From an uncultured Clostridia bacterium (lineage in GTDB: Bacteria; Bacillota; Clostridia; Christensenellales; UBA3700), in NCBI GenBank assembly GCA_947646415.1, contig CANSGN010000009.1, positions 18,354-42,353 on the forward strand: DNA of 24,000 nt, written 5' to 3'. Every line of letters starts with the position of its first letter. Position 1 is the first letter of the stretch. This document shows positions 674 through 10,660 of the stretch, in pieces. A program made the translations under genes and the position numbers. The notes beneath the pieces are model-generated. The model did no database searches and had not been told where the DNA came from. It saw only the letters and a program-made list of their open reading frames with translations.

Positions 674-709
674 CACCCTGAAACTTAAAGTTTCGGGGTG
701 TTGCTTTTT
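674..709. terminator. Rho-independent terminator hairpin, usable in both directions
   Basis: caccctgaaac (674-684) / loop ttaaa / gtttcggggtg (690-700) gives an 11-bp stem with one G-T pair, followed by ttgcttttt on the + strand. The A-rich run ataaaaata 5' of the stem supplies a U-tract for minus-strand transcripts. Confidence 0.8.
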
Positions 710-710
710 G

Positions 711-808
711 TGTAAAGTTTAAAGTAGGCAAAAAAGGCTGTTCACTGCAATAATCCTATCAAAAATCGGGACTATTGGGGTTGAAATTTTGCCTTTAATG
801 TAAAGTTT
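711..808. repeat. MITE-like or structured 80-bp insert (719-798) with imperfect terminal inverted repeats, flanked by the direct repeat tgtaaagttt
   Basis: The 10-mer tgtaaagttt occurs at 711-720 and 799-808. The left end ttaaag-tag-gcaaaa (719-733) pairs with the right end ttttgc-ctttaa (787-798): 12 bp with a 3-nt bulge. The interior carries one copy of the caaaaatcgg word (760-769). Confidence 0.3.
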
Positions 809-811
809 GGG

Positions 812-838
812 TACATGGAATAAGTATATCTATGTACA
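812..838. repeat. Left inverted repeat of the candidate switch
   Basis: tacatggaataagtatatctatgtaca is the reverse complement of 960-986 except for g817 opposite t981. Confidence 0.9.
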
Positions 839-850
839 TATTATATGTAT

Positions 851-880
851 ATTTTAAACTAAAATGTAAGATAATGTCAA
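851..880 (-). promoter_or_regulatory. Sigma-A-type promoter inside the invertible segment, currently facing away from the surface-protein gene
   Basis: The minus strand reads TTGACA (880-875), an 18-nt spacer, then TAAAAT (856-851). This is the best -35/-10 pair I can find between 700 and 1007. A weaker + strand candidate also exists: TTTACT 907-912, 18 nt, TATATT 931-936. Confidence 0.4.
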
Positions 881-959
881 CGTTATAGCAAAGGTTTTGT
901 AAACTCTTTACTTTAAGCATACAAAAATTATATATTCAAACTCAAAAAATCTTCGATTT

Positions 960-986
960 TGTACATAGATATACTTATTCTATGTA
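960..986. repeat. Right inverted repeat of the candidate switch
   Basis: tgtacatagatatacttattctatgta is the reverse complement of 812-838 with one mismatch. Confidence 0.9.
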
Positions 987-1007
987 AGTAAAATTGGAGG
1001 TTTTATT

Positions 1008-4000
1008 ATGGCAAAGATAATAAAAAGAGCGGGAATGATATTTTTTGTGTCAGTAATATCTTGTCTAATAGCTTTGGGCTGCGTAATAACAATGCAAGTT
1101 ACGGAAAGTAGCAATAACGGCATTGTAAATGCAGACACACAAAATAACATTTATACCGGTCAAAATAACGAGGATGGTAGTTATACTGTGCCAAAGACAG
1201 AGGTACCCGAAGTGCCAAAGTCAGACTATGAGTTTGAATTGGGACATAAGGCGAACTGTACAGAGCAAACAACTTGCACCTGTATGCAAGATATATGGAA
1301 CAGTGCGGTACAAAAATCTTTGGATACAGGTAAAAATGTAAAAGTAACATTATTAAACGATTGGATTGCCTCTACCGATGATGCAATGCACAAATTGGGA
1401 ACGGGAATTGGATTTGTAAGTCAAGATGGTACATTACATATTCCTCTAGATGCCGAGATTACTTTGGATTTGAACGGACATGATATAGATAGGAAATTTG
1501 ATGCAAGCAATGCTATACCTGGAGGTTTAATTTTTAGATTTCAAGGTACTTTGAATCTTGTGGACAACAAATATAATACTGTTGAAATAGAAAATATCTA
1601 CAATCAAACCAAAGGCAATAAAGATAATTTTGTGTCAGCTTTAAAGAACTATAAAGCCGGTCAAATACGCGGAGGTGGCAGAAGTGAGAATTCTGGCGGA
1701 GCAATAGTTTTGGACCCGGGTGCAGTTTTAAATATGTATGGCGGTATTATAACAGAAAATTATGCATTTGTTTCAGGCGGTGCTATTTGTTCAACAAATG
1801 GTACAAAAGTTAATATCTATGACGGGGTTATAACAAATAATTATTCCAATAGAGTTGGTGGATTGTTTATTCAAGACGATATTGATATTTATGGCGGAAT
1901 AATTGCATACAATCACGATTTGATTGAAGAAAATGTAGTTAATCAAGCGGGCGGAATGTATGTGATTTCTCCTACTGCGGATGTAAACATTTACGGAGGA
2001 AAAATCACTCACAATACATCTACGGGCAGAGCAGGCGGAGTTTATTTTCATAATGCAAACAAAGTAAATATTTATGATTGCGATATAAGCTATAATCAAG
2101 CAGGCAGCTACGGAGGTGGTATATATTCAAGAACTGTCAACGAGTTTAATTTTTACAATGGTAAAGTTAACCACAACACTACTGAAGCTGACGGCGGAGG
2201 AATGATTTTGTATTTGACAAAGGTTGTACGTATATACGATGGACAAATCAATAACAATACCGCAAGTTATGGCGGCGGTATAAAAATTGACTCTGTCGAA
2301 GATGCGTATTTATATGGTGGAGAGATAAGTGGTAATGTCGGTGACAATGGTGGCGGAATATATGTAAACTGTCGGTTGTATTTGAAAGGTGGAACTATAG
2401 TAAATAATATTGCCGAAAATGGTGGAGGTATTTATGTAGCCGGAAAAGTCTCATTAGGTGCAGGAACACAAGTTTATGGCAATAAATTAAAAACAAATGC
2501 CGAATCGGATATATTGTTACATAATGGAACTAAACTCCAAATATTTGAAAAATTAGGTACTGATTCAAAAACAACCCGTGTAGGAGTTGCTTTAGCTAGT
2601 GATTACGGCAGTGGATATTTTACATCAGGCTATAAGTATTTTAACGAATCGGCAACTTCTATTTCTCCGTCGGTTTATTTCTTCTCGAATGCAAGCAACA
2701 CAAGTGTAGTTTTAGACGGAGAAGATTTGAAAATGAGTACAGGAACAAAACCGACTGCGACATGCGATTGGATAATTTCCAACAAAGGTACGGAAGAAAG
2801 GTTTAATAAAGATAATGTTATAAGAAAAACTTATAATGGCTCGATATTTACTATTTCAAATTCAAAAGGTGCATTTTATATCGGGGGCAGTTATAATACA
2901 TCAATAAATTCATATACGCAAGCTTTAAATGTTGGAGAATACGCTTTTTATACAAAAGAAAATGTGACAAATCCTGTATTTACGTTAATAATTGAACCAA
3001 AACAAGTGGATTTGGAGTGGCAAACAATTTTAACATATAACGGAACTGTTCAAAGTCCTATAGCAAATGTGGCAGAAAATGAAATCTTAAACTTAGACAG
3101 CTGTAATGTTTTAGTAGATGGCAGTGCAATAAATGTTGGTACCAATTACTATGCAACTGCAATAAGTTTGCAAAATATCAATTACAAAATTAATCCATTG
3201 ACAAAAAGCACGACTTATAAAATATTACCTGCAGAACTCGAAATAAATATTTCAACAAACGATAAAAGTGCTGTATATAGCGGACAGGAAATTAAACTTG
3301 ATAAATGGTTTAGCGTGAGTGCAACTTTACTTGGCAATGATAAATTGAAACCATTAACTAATGTATTTAATATAGACTACAGCAAAATAGTGCCACAGTT
3401 TACAAAGGACGGAGTGACAACGGATAGTGCCGTAAATGTAGGAGAGTATGCAATAAGCATAAAACCATTTGACGTAAGCAAAGTGTTTAGCGGTAACAGT
3501 AACTACAATGTAACAGTCAATTATTTAAATGGAGGAAAACTTACAATAAGCGAGGCAAATGTAATAAGACCAGCAGCAGAGTCTAAATACGATTACTTAA
3601 TCCTAGAGGGAGATAAGAGAGTAAGTTATAAAGACAAAGGCTTGATACACGGGGATAATGACAGCAATGTAAATGTAGTAGAAGGAAAAGCAAACTACTA
3701 TATGGGAAATATAAGCCCAAATACAAGCGTAAACACGTTTATAAGCAACTTGGTATATGACAAAACACAAATACAAATCTACAACAGCAAAGGCGCAATA
3801 ATCTACGATAAAGGCAATACAAGCGTAAATGCGGAGTTGTTGAATAATGGAAAAGAGTTAGCAGTAGGAACAGGTTGGTATATAGAGTACAGTAAAGACG
3901 GAGTAACTGAAAGAGTAACCTTATCCGTACTAGGCGACGTGAACGGAGACGGTAGGATAAGTGCAAGCGATGTTACATACCTAAGACAAATAGCAAGTGA

Positions 4001-4139
4001 TAGCGCGTTATATGAAAAATTAAGTGTGGAAAAGAAACTCGCAAGTATGGTAATAAACAAAGGCAATGTGACAAGTGCAGATGCGGAAATCGTAAGAAAT
4101 GTTGTGGACAAATTTATAACTATTAACATGTTTTTTTAA
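1008..4139 (+). CDS. Large secreted or cell-surface protein: signal/anchor, beta-helix (PMP-type GGxIY) repeats, MBG-like adhesin modules, C-terminal dockerin-like module
   Basis: SD GGAGG at 996-1000, 7 nt before the ATG. The N-terminus is hydrophobic (MIFFVSVISCLIALGC). About ten degenerate repeats of the form GG(G/A)IY....NIYGG.I..N span roughly aa 228-490. They are followed by modules of the pattern ..YNGT.Q.P...NVG.YYA....NYKI......Y.I.PAEL.. and ..VNVGEYAI......NYNVTV..L.GGKLTISEA... The C-terminus has GDVNGDGRISASDVTYLRQ plus a degenerate second segment INKGNVTSADAEIVRNVV, a dockerin-type Ca-binding duplication. Confidence 0.85.
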   Translation: MAKIIKRAGMIFFVSVISCLIALGCVITMQVTESSNNGIVNADTQNNIYTGQNNEDGSYTVPKTEVPEVPKSDYEFELGHKANCTEQTTCTCMQDIWNSAVQKSLDTGKNVKVTLLNDWIASTDDAMHKLGTGIGFVSQDGTLHIPLDAEITLDLNGHDIDRKFDASNAIPGGLIFRFQGTLNLVDNKYNTVEIENIYNQTKGNKDNFVSALKNYKAGQIRGGGRSENSGGAIVLDPGAVLNMYGGIITENYAFVSGGAICSTNGTKVNIYDGVITNNYSNRVGGLFIQDDIDIYGGIIAYNHDLIEENVVNQAGGMYVISPTADVNIYGGKITHNTSTGRAGGVYFHNANKVNIYDCDISYNQAGSYGGGIYSRTVNEFNFYNGKVNHNTTEADGGGMILYLTKVVRIYDGQINNNTASYGGGIKIDSVEDAYLYGGEISGNVGDNGGGIYVNCRLYLKGGTIVNNIAENGGGIYVAGKVSLGAGTQVYGNKLKTNAESDILLHNGTKLQIFEKLGTDSKTTRVGVALASDYGSGYFTSGYKYFNESATSISPSVYFFSNASNTSVVLDGEDLKMSTGTKPTATCDWIISNKGTEERFNKDNVIRKTYNGSIFTISNSKGAFYIGGSYNTSINSYTQALNVGEYAFYTKENVTNPVFTLIIEPKQVDLEWQTILTYNGTVQSPIANVAENEILNLDSCNVLVDGSAINVGTNYYATAISLQNINYKINPLTKSTTYKILPAELEINISTNDKSAVYSGQEIKLDKWFSVSATLLGNDKLKPLTNVFNIDYSKIVPQFTKDGVTTDSAVNVGEYAISIKPFDVSKVFSGNSNYNVTVNYLNGGKLTISEANVIRPAAESKYDYLILEGDKRVSYKDKGLIHGDNDSNVNVVEGKANYYMGNISPNTSVNTFISNLVYDKTQIQIYNSKGAIIYDKGNTSVNAELLNNGKELAVGTGWYIEYSKDGVTERVTLSVLGDVNGDGRISASDVTYLRQIASDSALYEKLSVEKKLASMVINKGNVTSADAEIVRNVVDKFITINMFF
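1689..2478 (+). repeat. Tandem degenerate coding repeats (beta-helix / polymorphic-membrane-protein type) inside the surface-protein gene
   Basis: Protein-level periodicity of about 24-30 aa: GGAIVL..NMYGGIITEN, GGAICS..NIYDGVITNN, GGLFIQ..DIYGGIIAYN, GGMYVI..NIYGGKITHN, GGVYFH..NIYDCDISYN, GGGIYS..NFYNGKVNHN, GGGMIL..RIYDGQINNN, GGGIKI..YLYGGEISGN, GGGIYV..YLKGGTIVNN, GGGIYV. Confidence 0.7.
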
Positions 4140-4177
4140 TATTTAATACCAGCATTAAAAAATAATCTATTAAGTAA

Positions 4178-4220: not shown

Positions 4221-4363
4221 TATCCGATTAGCTATAAAATACTTATAAACTTGGGTTTTAAAGAGGTTTTGCAATTTTTGAAATATAATAGTATAAAAAT
4301 AAATTATGGAAAATATAACAAATTGTAATATTCAAAAATAACTAAAAATTTACATAAAAAAGA

Positions 4364-4392
4364 TTGAAAAAGTACAAATAAAATGTTATCAT
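4364..4392 (+). promoter_or_regulatory. Sigma-A-type promoter for the DUF1846 gene
   Basis: TTGAAA (4364-4369), 17-nt spacer, TATCAT (4387-4392), with a TG at 4384-4385 (extended -10). Confidence 0.45.
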
Positions 4393-4494
4393 ATTATAGT
4401 AAGCTATTTGGAGTTTAATCGGATTAAATTTAATGACATATTAGTTTAATACAATAAACCAAAAGAAAGGAAAAATTTGCTAAAGAGGTTTGTT

Positions 4495-5973
4495 ATGGAA
4501 TACGGTTTTGATAATGAGAAATATGTCAAAATGCAAAAAGAAAATATCTTAAAAAGAATCAGTCAATATGACAAGTTGTACCTTGAATTCGGTGGCAAGT
4601 TATTTGACGATTGTCATGCATCAAGGGTATTGCCCGGTTTTGATGTAAATGCTAAAGTTAAACTGCTGGTTACATTAAAAGATAAAGCCGAAATTATCAT
4701 TGCAATCAGTGGCGAAGATTTAGCTCGAAATAAGATTAGGGCAGATTATGGTATAGGTTACGATGCCGACGTAATGCGCTTGATTGACAATATGAGAGAA
4801 CTTGGCATTTACATAGGTAGTATTGTTATAACTAAATATGAGGGACAACCATCTGCCGACTTATTCAAAACAAAAATGGAGCGTAGGGGAGAAAAAGTTT
4901 ATATTCATACAAAAACAAAAGGTTACCCTACGGATATAAATACAATTATTAGTGACGAGGGATATGGTAAAAACCCTTATATCGAAACAACAAGACCGTT
5001 GGTCGTGGTTACTGCACCCGGTCCCGGCAGCGGAAAGCTTGCAACGTGTTTGGGACAATTATATCATGAGTATAAAAGGGGAAATCGTGCAGGATATGCT
5101 AAGTTTGAAACATTTCCTATTTGGAATTTGCCTTTAAAACACCCTGTAAATGTTGCGTATGAGGCTGCAACAGCCGATTTAAAGGATGTTAATATGATTG
5201 ACCACTTCCATTTGGAAAAATACGGTGTCAGCACAGTAAACTATAACCGCGATATCGAGGTGTTTCCTGTAGTAAGAACTATTTTGGAAAGGATAACAGG
5301 CCATTGTCCTTATTGTTCGCCAACTGAAATGGGCGTAAATATGGCGGGTTTTGCGATTGATAATGACGAAGTAGTTCAAAAGGCTGCAAAACAGGAAGTT
5401 ATACGCAGATATTACAAGGCTTGTTGCGATTATTTGCAAGGCAATGGGGATATTTCCACAAAGGAAAAAATAGAGCTTTTGATGGGCGATTTAGGGATTA
5501 CCCCTGATGATAGAAAGGTTGCGGTAATTGCAAGAGAAAAGTCAAACGATTGCGGAGTACCTGTTGTGGCATTGGAATTGCCAAACGGTAAAATTGTGAC
5601 AGGTAAAAAATCCAACTTACTTTCGGCATCTTCCGCTGTACTGCTAAATGCTATTAAAGAGCTTGCAAACATTAGTGACGATATAAATTTGATTTCCCCA
5701 CTTACAATCGAACCTATTTTGAAAATGAAAAAGGAGCTTTTGAAAGAAAAATACGATTTCTTGACATTGGAGGAAATGTTGATTGCATTATCTATTGGTG
5801 CGGTAACCAATCCGACAGCTGCAAAAGCAATGTCTAAGGTTAAAGAGTTGTTTGGATGTGAGGCACACGGCAGCTGTATACTTCCTGTGACGGACGAAAC
5901 TGTTATCAAAAAACTTGGTATTAACATAACAACAGAAGCAGTTTTTGGTAGTAACAATCTATATAATTTGTAA
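4495..5973 (+). CDS. DUF1846 / UPF0371 family protein (function unknown)
   Basis: The translation MEYGFDNEKYVKMQKENILKRISQYDKLYLEFGGKLFDDCHASRVLPGF.. and the conserved TAPGPGSGKLATCLGQLYHE segment match what I recall of the UPF0371/DUF1846 family of about 490-500 aa. I prefer ATG 4495 (SD AAGAGG 4483-4488) over the track's TTG 4477. Confidence 0.75.
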   Translation: MEYGFDNEKYVKMQKENILKRISQYDKLYLEFGGKLFDDCHASRVLPGFDVNAKVKLLVTLKDKAEIIIAISGEDLARNKIRADYGIGYDADVMRLIDNMRELGIYIGSIVITKYEGQPSADLFKTKMERRGEKVYIHTKTKGYPTDINTIISDEGYGKNPYIETTRPLVVVTAPGPGSGKLATCLGQLYHEYKRGNRAGYAKFETFPIWNLPLKHPVNVAYEAATADLKDVNMIDHFHLEKYGVSTVNYNRDIEVFPVVRTILERITGHCPYCSPTEMGVNMAGFAIDNDEVVQKAAKQEVIRRYYKACCDYLQGNGDISTKEKIELLMGDLGITPDDRKVAVIAREKSNDCGVPVVALELPNGKIVTGKKSNLLSASSAVLLNAIKELANISDDINLISPLTIEPILKMKKELLKEKYDFLTLEEMLIALSIGAVTNPTAAKAMSKVKELFGCEAHGSCILPVTDETVIKKLGINITTEAVFGSNNLYNL

Positions 5974-10195: not shown

Positions 10196-10660
10196 ATGGA
10201 CAATAAAAATAGTTTATCACACACAAAGTATAGGTGTCATTATCATATAGTATTTGCACCAAAATATAGAAGACAAGTAATATATGGTAAAATCAAAAAA
10301 GATATAGGTGTTATGTTAAGAAAATTATGTGAATGGAAAGGAGTAGAAATAATAGAAGCCGAAGCATGTCCCGACCATATACATATGTTAGAAACAATAC
10401 CACCTAAATTAAGTATAGCACAATTTATGGGATATATCAAGGGAAAAAGTTCAATAATGATATTTGACAAATATGCAAATTTAAAATATAAATATGGAAA
10501 CAGAGTGTTTTGGTGTAGAGGGTATTATGTAGATACAGTAGGAAAAAATAAAACTGCGATAGAAGAATATATAAGAAATCAGATACAAGAAGATTTAGCA
10601 TATGAGCAAATAACAATGAAAGAATATTTGGACCCGTTTACGGGTAGCAAAGAAAAGTAA
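10196..10660 (+). CDS. tnpA: IS200/IS605 family transposase TnpA (HUH, Y1)
   Basis: SD AGGAGG at 10182-10187. The translation shows YRCHYHIVFAPKYRR, the HUH motif PDHIHML, and the catalytic-Tyr region WCRGYYVDTVG. The length of 154 aa fits the family. Confidence 0.92.
   Translation: MDNKNSLSHTKYRCHYHIVFAPKYRRQVIYGKIKKDIGVMLRKLCEWKGVEIIEAEACPDHIHMLETIPPKLSIAQFMGYIKGKSSIMIFDKYANLKYKYGNRVFWCRGYYVDTVGKNKTAIEEYIRNQIQEDLAYEQITMKEYLDPFTGSKEK

Follow-up and report, generated by a model that had tools for sequence, protein, structure and literature searches.

What does a pair of inverted repeats do when it ends a few nucleotides before the ribosome-binding site (RBS) of a large surface-protein gene? 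The question is raised by a 24-kb stretch of contig CANSGN010000009.1 (assembly GCA_947646415.1) from an uncultured Clostridia bacterium, which was analyzed over its whole length of 24,000 nt and is called the window here. A sequence-only reading of the window had proposed that positions 811-987 form an invertible promoter, or inverton, in front of a gene for a secreted dockerin and beta-helix protein. We found that the segment inverts in nature in the family of switches that share this type of site, and it is very likely that 811-987 is a promoter switch worked by site-specific recombination, caught here in the OFF orientation with its promoter facing away from the gene. The window switch appears to belong to a set of about 23 near-identical cassettes in each genome, all of them placed in front of paralogous genes for secreted proteins.

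Inversion was observed at two loci related to that of the window. L036 (ON; MGBC121002) and L060 (OFF; metagenome contig OFGN01001298.1) represent the same locus, and their 123-bp interiors are exact reverse complements between collinear flanks, the right flank being 97.7% identical over 1417 nt and about 250 nt of the left flank near-identical. The orthologue of L036 in another species, L017 (OFF; MGBC162486), has the orientation of L060. The second locus, which consists of a recombinase, a metallophosphoesterase, a switch and a family gene for a protein of 1013 amino acids, is present in five independent assemblies, with four OFF (L067, L068, L069 and L072) and one ON (L073). The 124-bp interior of L073 is exactly the reverse complement of that in the OFF assemblies, and L067 and L073 are 100% identical over 3300 nt of flank on the left and 2300 nt on the right. 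In both ON cases a TTGACA-18-TATAAT promoter is directed into the gene. The flipped junctions in these assemblies would imply reads that contain them, since the repeats, at 27 bp, do not reach the usual read length or the final k-mer of an assembly.

Among the 65 complete switches that have a gene to their right, 63 are OFF and two are ON. A metagenome scan for the ON-specific junction (interior end, right site and RBS) gave no match, and a second scan, for a junction that does not depend on orientation, returned 26 loci, every one of them OFF. The closest homologues, P0001 and P0002, have one locus each, both OFF, and P0064 has three loci, all OFF.

Sites, promoters and surroundings of the probable switch

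The cassette and its gene comprise the following features in the window.

673-701, no strand assigned: hairpin terminator with a 13-bp stem, an A-run before it and a T-run after it; upstream edge of the cassette
702-810, plus strand: conserved left flank of the cassette, common to all copies; possible accessory or regulatory sites
811-837, plus strand: left recombination site, GTACATGGA-ATAAGTATA-TCTATGTAC (outer arm, asymmetric centre, inner arm)
838-960, no strand assigned: invertible segment of 123 bp, promoter facing away from the gene (OFF); homologous segments are exactly inverted at two loci
851-880, minus strand: predicted sigma-70-type promoter, TTGACA 880-875, 18 nt, TAAAAT 856-851
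961-987, minus strand: right recombination site, an inverted copy of the left site, reading GTACATAGATATACTTATTCTATGTAA on the plus strand
996-1000, plus strand: RBS GGAGG, 7 nt before the ATG and conserved in the family
1008-4139, plus strand: controlled gene, ATG at 1008, for a secreted protein of 1043 amino acids with a signal/anchor N-terminus (MAKIIKRAG...) and a dockerin C-terminus

The inverted repeats were found as first described. Positions 812-838 (TACATGGAATAAGTATATCTATGTACA) and 960-986 pair as reverse complements except at G817, which lies opposite T981, and they are separated by 121 nt; a repeat finder lengthened the pair to 803-838/960-995 (36 nt, 86%). A search allowing up to three mismatches found exactly these two copies in the window, and 100 dinucleotide shuffles of the window gave zero matches to the repeat at that threshold. 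For the element we adopted a definition of two 27-bp sites, 811-837 and 961-987, with one mismatch and an interior of 123 bp; the right site ends 8 nt from the RBS. The imperfect dyad around an asymmetric 7-bp centre also reads as noted: the left site can be divided into GTACATGGAA / TAAGTAT / ATCTATGTAC (a 10-7-10 layout, or 9-9-9), and each site can also be written GTACATGGA(A) / TAAGTAT / (A)TCTATGTAC.

Comparison between lineages is informative about how such sites are built. The arms GTACATAGA and TCTATGTAC are constant across lineages, and in the sister lineages they form a perfect dyad of 9-bp arms. The central 9 bp are specific to the lineage: the window lineage and MGBC121002 have ATAAGTATA, the P0122 lineage has TTAAGCATA, P0128 has ATACATATA and P0064 has ATAAATATA, the last with left and right matched in L092 and L093. 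In 65 of 65 switches, with three lineage variants, both sites agree in their central 9-mer, in inverted orientation. In Cre/loxP, Flp/FRT and XerCD/dif, the protein binds the arms and the spacer only has to match between partner sites. The earlier suggestion that these are core sites of a tyrosine recombinase is supported by this pattern, because the arms are fixed and the spacers differ by lineage yet match within each switch. The window lineage also has a consistent difference in the outer arm (G at 817 on the left versus an A-equivalent on the right), which would fit a crossover internal to the arms.

The best promoter within the repeats had been placed on the minus strand, facing away from the gene, and this TTGACA-18-TAAAAT element was the top hit of our promoter scan with 11 of 12 matches. 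An equivalent is kept in every one of the 45 distinct interiors, each with TTGACA, exactly 18 nt and then TATAAT (30), TAAAAT (10) or GATAAT (5), and this consensus-like promoter appears to be the sole strongly conserved content of the segment. The orientation in the window is assigned as probably OFF because of the direction of the promoter and the two ON examples. In an ON-state model of the window, 60 nt would separate the last base of the -10 hexamer from the ATG, and the right site would fall within a leader of about 53 nt. The scan likewise recovered the weaker plus-strand candidate reported before, TTTACT-18-TATATT at 907-936 (9 of 12 matches), and gave TAGGCA-18-AATAAT with a TG at 725-754, upstream of the left site. 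A terminator switch of the cwpV type was considered and rejected, since the terminator scan shows none inside the segment.

The hairpin at 673-701 is the sole terminator-like site that the scan found within 550-1100, and it is preserved across lineages by compensatory changes (CACCCC/GGGGUG, GCGGUG/CGCCGC, CAGCC/GGCUG and CAAGG/CCUUG). It could serve both directions because an A-run precedes the hairpin and a T-run follows it, and it may thus act as a two-way insulator. Four further motifs are conserved across at least four lineages: TGTAAAGTTT, which occurs twice in direct orientation at 711-720 and 799-808, TGCAATAAT at 746-754, a possible extended -10, CTATCAAAAATCGGG at 756-770, and TTTGTAA at 898-904 inside the invertible segment. 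These left-flank motifs and TTTGTAA could be sites for accessory proteins or part of an OFF-state RNA. A search of 550-1150 against Rfam returned no known RNA family, the sole match being one to Thr_leader at chance level (E=0.92), and RNAalifold of the putative OFF-state transcript gave the left-site hairpin and the terminator with no other conserved structure. A search for small open reading frames (ORFs) returned one of 41 amino acids on the minus strand at 795-920 inside the switch, which we judged incidental.

On the other side of the switch, the GGAGG at 996-1000 and the ATG at 1008 can be read directly from the sequence, as had been stated. The protein of 1043 amino acids includes a Pfam Dockerin_1 domain at residues 975-1031 and beta-helix repeats of the GGA(I/L/V) type with a weak match to POMP_repeat. 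Its homologues bear Beta_helix/Chlam_PMP domains, and an exact-protein look-up of the product matched no record. The 3' end of ypeB lies upstream of the switch, and the remaining window is composed of housekeeping and sporulation-type ORFs and an IS200-type transposase. This IS200-like Y1 transposase gene (10196-10660; Pfam Y1_Tnp, E=1.7e-39) is the only transposase-like gene of the window and is unrelated to the switch, and a 500-amino-acid ORF upstream of it resembles, by eye, the transcription termination factor Rho.

A multi-copy family of switch cassettes

Further copies of the site, which the sequence-only reading had proposed to look for, proved to be numerous. We scanned one genome per species with a 21-mer common to both arms and obtained 38 loci. 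There are 23 switch copies in MGBC162486, an uncultured Christensenellaceae metagenome-assembled genome (MAG) from mouse gut, and 14 in its sister MAG MGBC121002 (Christensenella sp.). The window comes from a close relative of MGBC162486, as compared with L008, L039 and L065 it is 91% identical on the ypeB side and 97% identical in the gene. The paired copies in MGBC162486 all have a spacing of 121 nt, and their interiors fall into two classes, of which A is about 95% identical to the window (93-97%) and B about 65%.

Each cassette has the order terminator, conserved flank, site, promoter segment, site, RBS and signal peptide. Similarity among the paralogous loci begins at about 660, so that about 150 nt of left flank, from the terminator hairpin onwards, is common to them, and on the right side the homology includes the RBS, the ATG and a signal/anchor peptide of the form MAK(I/C)IKR(A/V)GI.FF. 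The position of the switch relative to the start codon is constant among cassettes. The ORFs downstream encode about 480-1050 amino acids, and about 60% of the complete ones have a dockerin motif as judged by a crude pattern.

Beside the ON switch of L036 (1710-5904 of this locus; CAJTYW010000011.1; same locus as L060 and orthologous to L017) we also found a diversity-generating retroelement. It houses a reverse transcriptase (4732-5904), a bAvd-like protein (4232-4735) and a 117-nt template repeat (4049-4165), which is 87% identical to a variable region at 2284-2400 in the switch-controlled gene, itself encoding DUF6273 and a dockerin. Sixteen A-to-N substitutions explain essentially all of the differences inside the repeat. 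This surface-protein gene thus seems to be under both phase switching and targeted hypermutation.

Several copies look mosaic. Window positions 781-1070, which include the switch and the first 60 nt or so of coding sequence, are identical to L066, where the switch lies between GH16 and recJ; the window switch lies between ypeB and DUF1846. L055 has its gene and upstream side as in L066 and its downstream side as in the window, and L092 and L093 share the same protein and the same flanks with interiors of different classes. Such apparently mosaic cassettes and gene ends suggest that paralogous loci exchange sequence by gene conversion or by recombination from site to site, although some of the assemblies might be chimeric.

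Other copies are incomplete. In L052 (OFFU01001109.1, minus strand, near 1015), whose ypeB-linked locus resembles that of the window, the left site is followed by a class B interior that passes directly into mid-gene coding sequence. The right site, RBS and signal peptide are all absent, either because a deletion has locked or inactivated the gene or because the contig is misassembled. Four otherwise complete copies lack an RBS and ATG to their right; the end of the locus truncates L021, and L003, L007 and L050 look degenerate. In the L003 copy (4341-4517; CAJUOU010000003.1), which is the one nearest the recombinase described below, about 160 nt of unrelated sequence are followed by a 432-amino-acid ORF that resembles an AAA ATPase by eye, and in L007 and L050 the right site has diverged and adjoins non-coding sequence. 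These three are probably remnants after gene loss.

The cassettes also coincide with breaks in assemblies. Contigs end at the left site or a few bases past it among L001, L019, L027, L041, L044, L054, L058, L070, L071, L074, L077 and L079, and three Logan contigs end inside the left site; mixed orientation, a multi-copy cassette or the palindromic site may have broken the assembly graph. One of these, L027 (CBFGCD010000030.1), is a 1.9-kb contig that is 98% identical to the GH16-cassette locus (L055 and L066) and is binned as Candidatus Gastranaerophilaceae, which is most likely a binning error.

Candidate recombinase, mechanism and competing explanations

The window was said to hold no recombinase gene, and motif, Pfam and phmmer screening of its ORFs bore this out. 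Beyond the window, where the sequence-only reading had suggested searching, the DNA around the switches includes a gene for a tyrosine recombinase of 309 amino acids, located in L003 about 2 kb from a switch in a near-identical genome. According to motif and phmmer screens of all ORFs there, it is, apart from its homologues, the sole recombinase gene in the DNA around the switches, and no ORF with the resolvase domain of a serine invertase was found in the loci around the switches of the two MAGs. The enzyme matches Pfam Phage_integrase PF00589 (E=1e-26) and Phage_int_SAM_3 PF14659, and the motifs TGIR, HSLRH and LGH...RY are visible in its sequence. Its nearest solved structure is an "Int protein" (PDB 6EN0), and against curated NCBIfam models it reached no equivalog. 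Orthologues with 89% and 77% identity are present in the P0122 and P0128 lineages, respectively. The order phosphatidylinositol-specific phospholipase C (PI-PLC, divergent), recombinase, metallophosphoesterase, switch and family gene is conserved in three lineages, and P0122 and P0128 keep this synteny though their switch spacers differ.

More distant homologues of the recombinase, with 56-59% identity, occur in other Clostridia and adjoin similar arm-spacer-arm sites. In L083 (6950-7170; 59% homologue), a pair of GTACATATAA-TATCTCA-TTCTATGTAC sites flanks 108 nt just upstream of a Flg_new surface-protein gene, and the segment has an outward-facing promoter-like sequence at its left end, so that it looks like another promoter switch. 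In L087 (6940-7115), the site GTACATAGAT-TAGAGTA-ATCTATGTAC follows the recombinase gene as a near-perfect palindrome, and the second site is partial. The context of L087 includes a large serine recombinase and a chloramphenicol acetyltransferase and may be a mobile element. Proximity in several lineages supports a link between the candidate enzyme and this type of site.

We propose that a tyrosine recombinase would bind the arms GTACATAGA(A/T) and (A/T)TCTATGTAC and synapse both sites, and that strand exchange within the identical centres (TAAGTAT in the window) would flip the segment. The acting enzyme would be an orthologue of the 309-amino-acid recombinase, working in trans on all copies. 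In the OFF state the promoter would fire leftward and give a transcript of about 150-180 nt that ends at the terminator 673-701. The gene would then be silent or expressed at a basal level, with the leftward transcript stopped at this terminator, which would also block read-through from ypeB. After inversion, TTGACA-18-TAAAAT would face the gene, with a leader that crosses the right site before it reaches GGAGG and the ATG at 1008. Each cell would display few members of the family, and the surface would thereby undergo phase or antigenic variation. A repertoire of few members per cell agrees with the strong OFF bias, and rare switching would explain it equally well. More speculatively, the short conserved OFF-state transcript, with the left-flank motifs, might feed back on the family, for example through directionality or mutual exclusion.

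Several observations count against this reading. The inversion that had been proposed stands at two related loci and not at the locus of the window itself, which is OFF in all four assemblies in which it occurs (the window, L008, L039 and L065). With 63 switches OFF and two ON, inversion may be infrequent, or a part of the copies may be locked. The promoters are defined by their match to the consensus, the tie to the recombinase consists of proximity and synteny with a gene outside the window, and the model gives no role to several of the motifs conserved in the left flank and in the interior. Moreover, the plus-strand TTTACT-18-TATATT (907-936) could express the gene in the "OFF" state, as could the upstream TGcAATAAT at 746-754.

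These last two points lead to the best-surviving alternative, a graded or reversed polarity in which the gene is transcribed in the majority state from 907-936 or 746-754, and inversion modulates low versus high expression or the interference from a convergent strong promoter. The promoter scan gives both candidates, TGCAATAAT and TTTAc/g...TATATT are preserved in four of the six cassette classes, and since 63 of 65 copies are in the majority orientation it would be odd for all of them to be silent unless expression is leaky. We nevertheless regard this as unlikely. The plus-strand candidates match the consensus weakly and the P0128 lineage does not keep them, whereas the minus-strand promoter is conserved throughout the 45 interiors and the strong promoter points towards the gene in both flipped cases. 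A large family with few members ON per cell also predicts an OFF consensus at every locus. As to the original assignment of ON and OFF, the two flipped cases place the promoter into the gene with the predicted leader, and the weak plus-strand promoter leaves a little room for the reverse.

Less probable again, and in our view very improbable, is a static operator cassette, with palindromic sites that bind a dimeric protein around a divergent promoter; the inversions would then have arisen by chance, through infrequent homologous recombination between the 27-bp repeats. In favor of it, the sites have the dyad symmetry of operators, nearly all copies are in one orientation, and the action of a recombinase is a prediction from sequence. 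However, there are two independent exact inversions with flanks that are otherwise identical or nearly so, the asymmetric centres are matched between fixed arms, which is not required of operators, and the tyrosine recombinase is syntenic with the switch in three lineages. In addition, a strong promoter in a fixed orientation would have nothing to transcribe. The spread of a miniature inverted-repeat transposable element to about 23 sites would account for a multi-copy unit of about 175 bp and constant length with terminal inverted repeats, but it has almost no probability left given that similarity continues about 150 bp to the left and more than 70 bp to the right of the repeats, into the RBS and signal-peptide codons, that in 65 complete copies an RBS and ATG follow on one side at a short, constant distance, that there is no target-site duplication around the repeats (aagtttgg before GTACAT on the left, gtaaaatt after ATGTAA on the right), and that the interior flips in place with unchanged flanks. 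From the lack of a target duplication and the fixed distance to the start codon, the repeated unit appears to be the complete 5' cassette of a paralogous gene family and not a mobile element.

Returning to the promoter switch, it is probable that this bacterium varies its surface coat in a known way and on a large scale. An uncultured mouse-gut member of the Clostridia, labelled as Christensenellaceae, appears to devote about 23 identical switches to one large dockerin/beta-helix family. A bolder picture, which we offer as tentative and rather doubtful, is that one tyrosine recombinase might run about 23 identical switches across the genome, so that each cell would show few dockerin-tagged beta-helix adhesins, perhaps on a shared cohesin anchor, amounting to antigenic variation of proteins in Clostridia on the scale of the mpl genes of Mycoplasma penetrans. 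The family is also a clean natural data set for site recognition by tyrosine invertases, with fixed arms and spacers that drift by lineage and are matched within a switch, and one of its surface-protein genes would be a case of a phase switch and a diversity-generating retroelement acting together. We predict that assemblies and MAGs of these organisms will break or be mis-joined at the cassettes.

Comparison with known invertible switches

Invertible promoters are a well-known source of surface variation in gut bacteria, and detailed knowledge of them comes mostly from Bacteroidota and Clostridioides difficile. Our literature searches returned no report that ties Christensenellaceae or dockerin proteins to invertons, and none of the site sequence. 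In Escherichia coli, fimS is a single locus with 9-bp repeats, a 314-bp segment, defined accessory sites for IHF and Lrp and the recombinases FimB/FimE. The switches described here resemble fimS in that a promoter segment would be flipped by tyrosine recombinases encoded nearby, giving ON/OFF control of a surface structure. They differ in scale and dimensions, with about 23 cassettes, 27-bp sites and a 123-bp segment in place of the single locus, short repeats and longer segment of fimS.

In C. difficile, the tyrosine recombinase RecV acts on short invertible segments before surface and motility genes (cwpV, flgB and cmrRST). There are about eight switches with dissimilar repeats, and cwpV has a fixed promoter and an orientation-dependent terminator downstream of it. 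The two systems share their class, Clostridia, as well as short invertible segments before surface genes and a tyrosine recombinase, which is a candidate in our case. Unlike in C. difficile, the segment here holds a promoter and no terminator-like site, and about 23 switches share one site.

Mpi of Bacteroides fragilis is reportedly a serine recombinase that controls mainly polysaccharide loci. Its regulon of invertible promoters is cited in PMC11602134 (Coyne et al. 2003 PNAS). As in the Mpi regulon, a single type of recombinase would serve, in trans, many promoters at scattered loci with a common consensus inverted repeat, the loci are mostly OFF in the population consensus, and the outcome would be surface variation in a gut commensal. 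In contrast to the Mpi system, the switches here stand before individual protein genes, the candidate enzyme is a tyrosine recombinase, and duplication extends to the entire 5' cassette, not the repeat only.

The hCom2 study, in the part that concerns Clostridia, ties "inverton group 139" to tyrosine recombinases of "invertase group 35", with 26-bp repeats in one example, and reports that nearly all group 139 invertons have a tyrosine recombinase within 5 kb and that the median is three invertons per Clostridia-like genome (PMC11892184). By this description only, group 139 resembles our switches in being composed of gut Clostridia invertons with a tyrosine recombinase nearby, and the approximately 23 invertons of one type found here stand against that median of three.

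As summarized in PMC2268961 (citing Horino et al. 2003, J Bacteriol 185:231), most of the 38 mpl (P35) lipoprotein genes of M. penetrans are thought to own an invertible promoter, with the tyrosine recombinases MYPE2900 and MYPE8180 as candidate enzymes. The mpl genes belong to a different phylum and encode lipoproteins, whereas the proteins here are secreted beta-helix/dockerin proteins. The 27-bp arm-spacer-arm dyads, the upstream insulating terminator and the extra conserved motifs also set our family apart, and it is known so far from its DNA sequence. By this analogy, the mpl family is nevertheless the closest architectural counterpart of the switch family in the window. Both would comprise a large paralogous family of surface proteins in which each gene has its own short invertible promoter and switches independently, and in both the loci are spread over the chromosome, with tyrosine recombinases near some of the family genes as the candidate enzymes.

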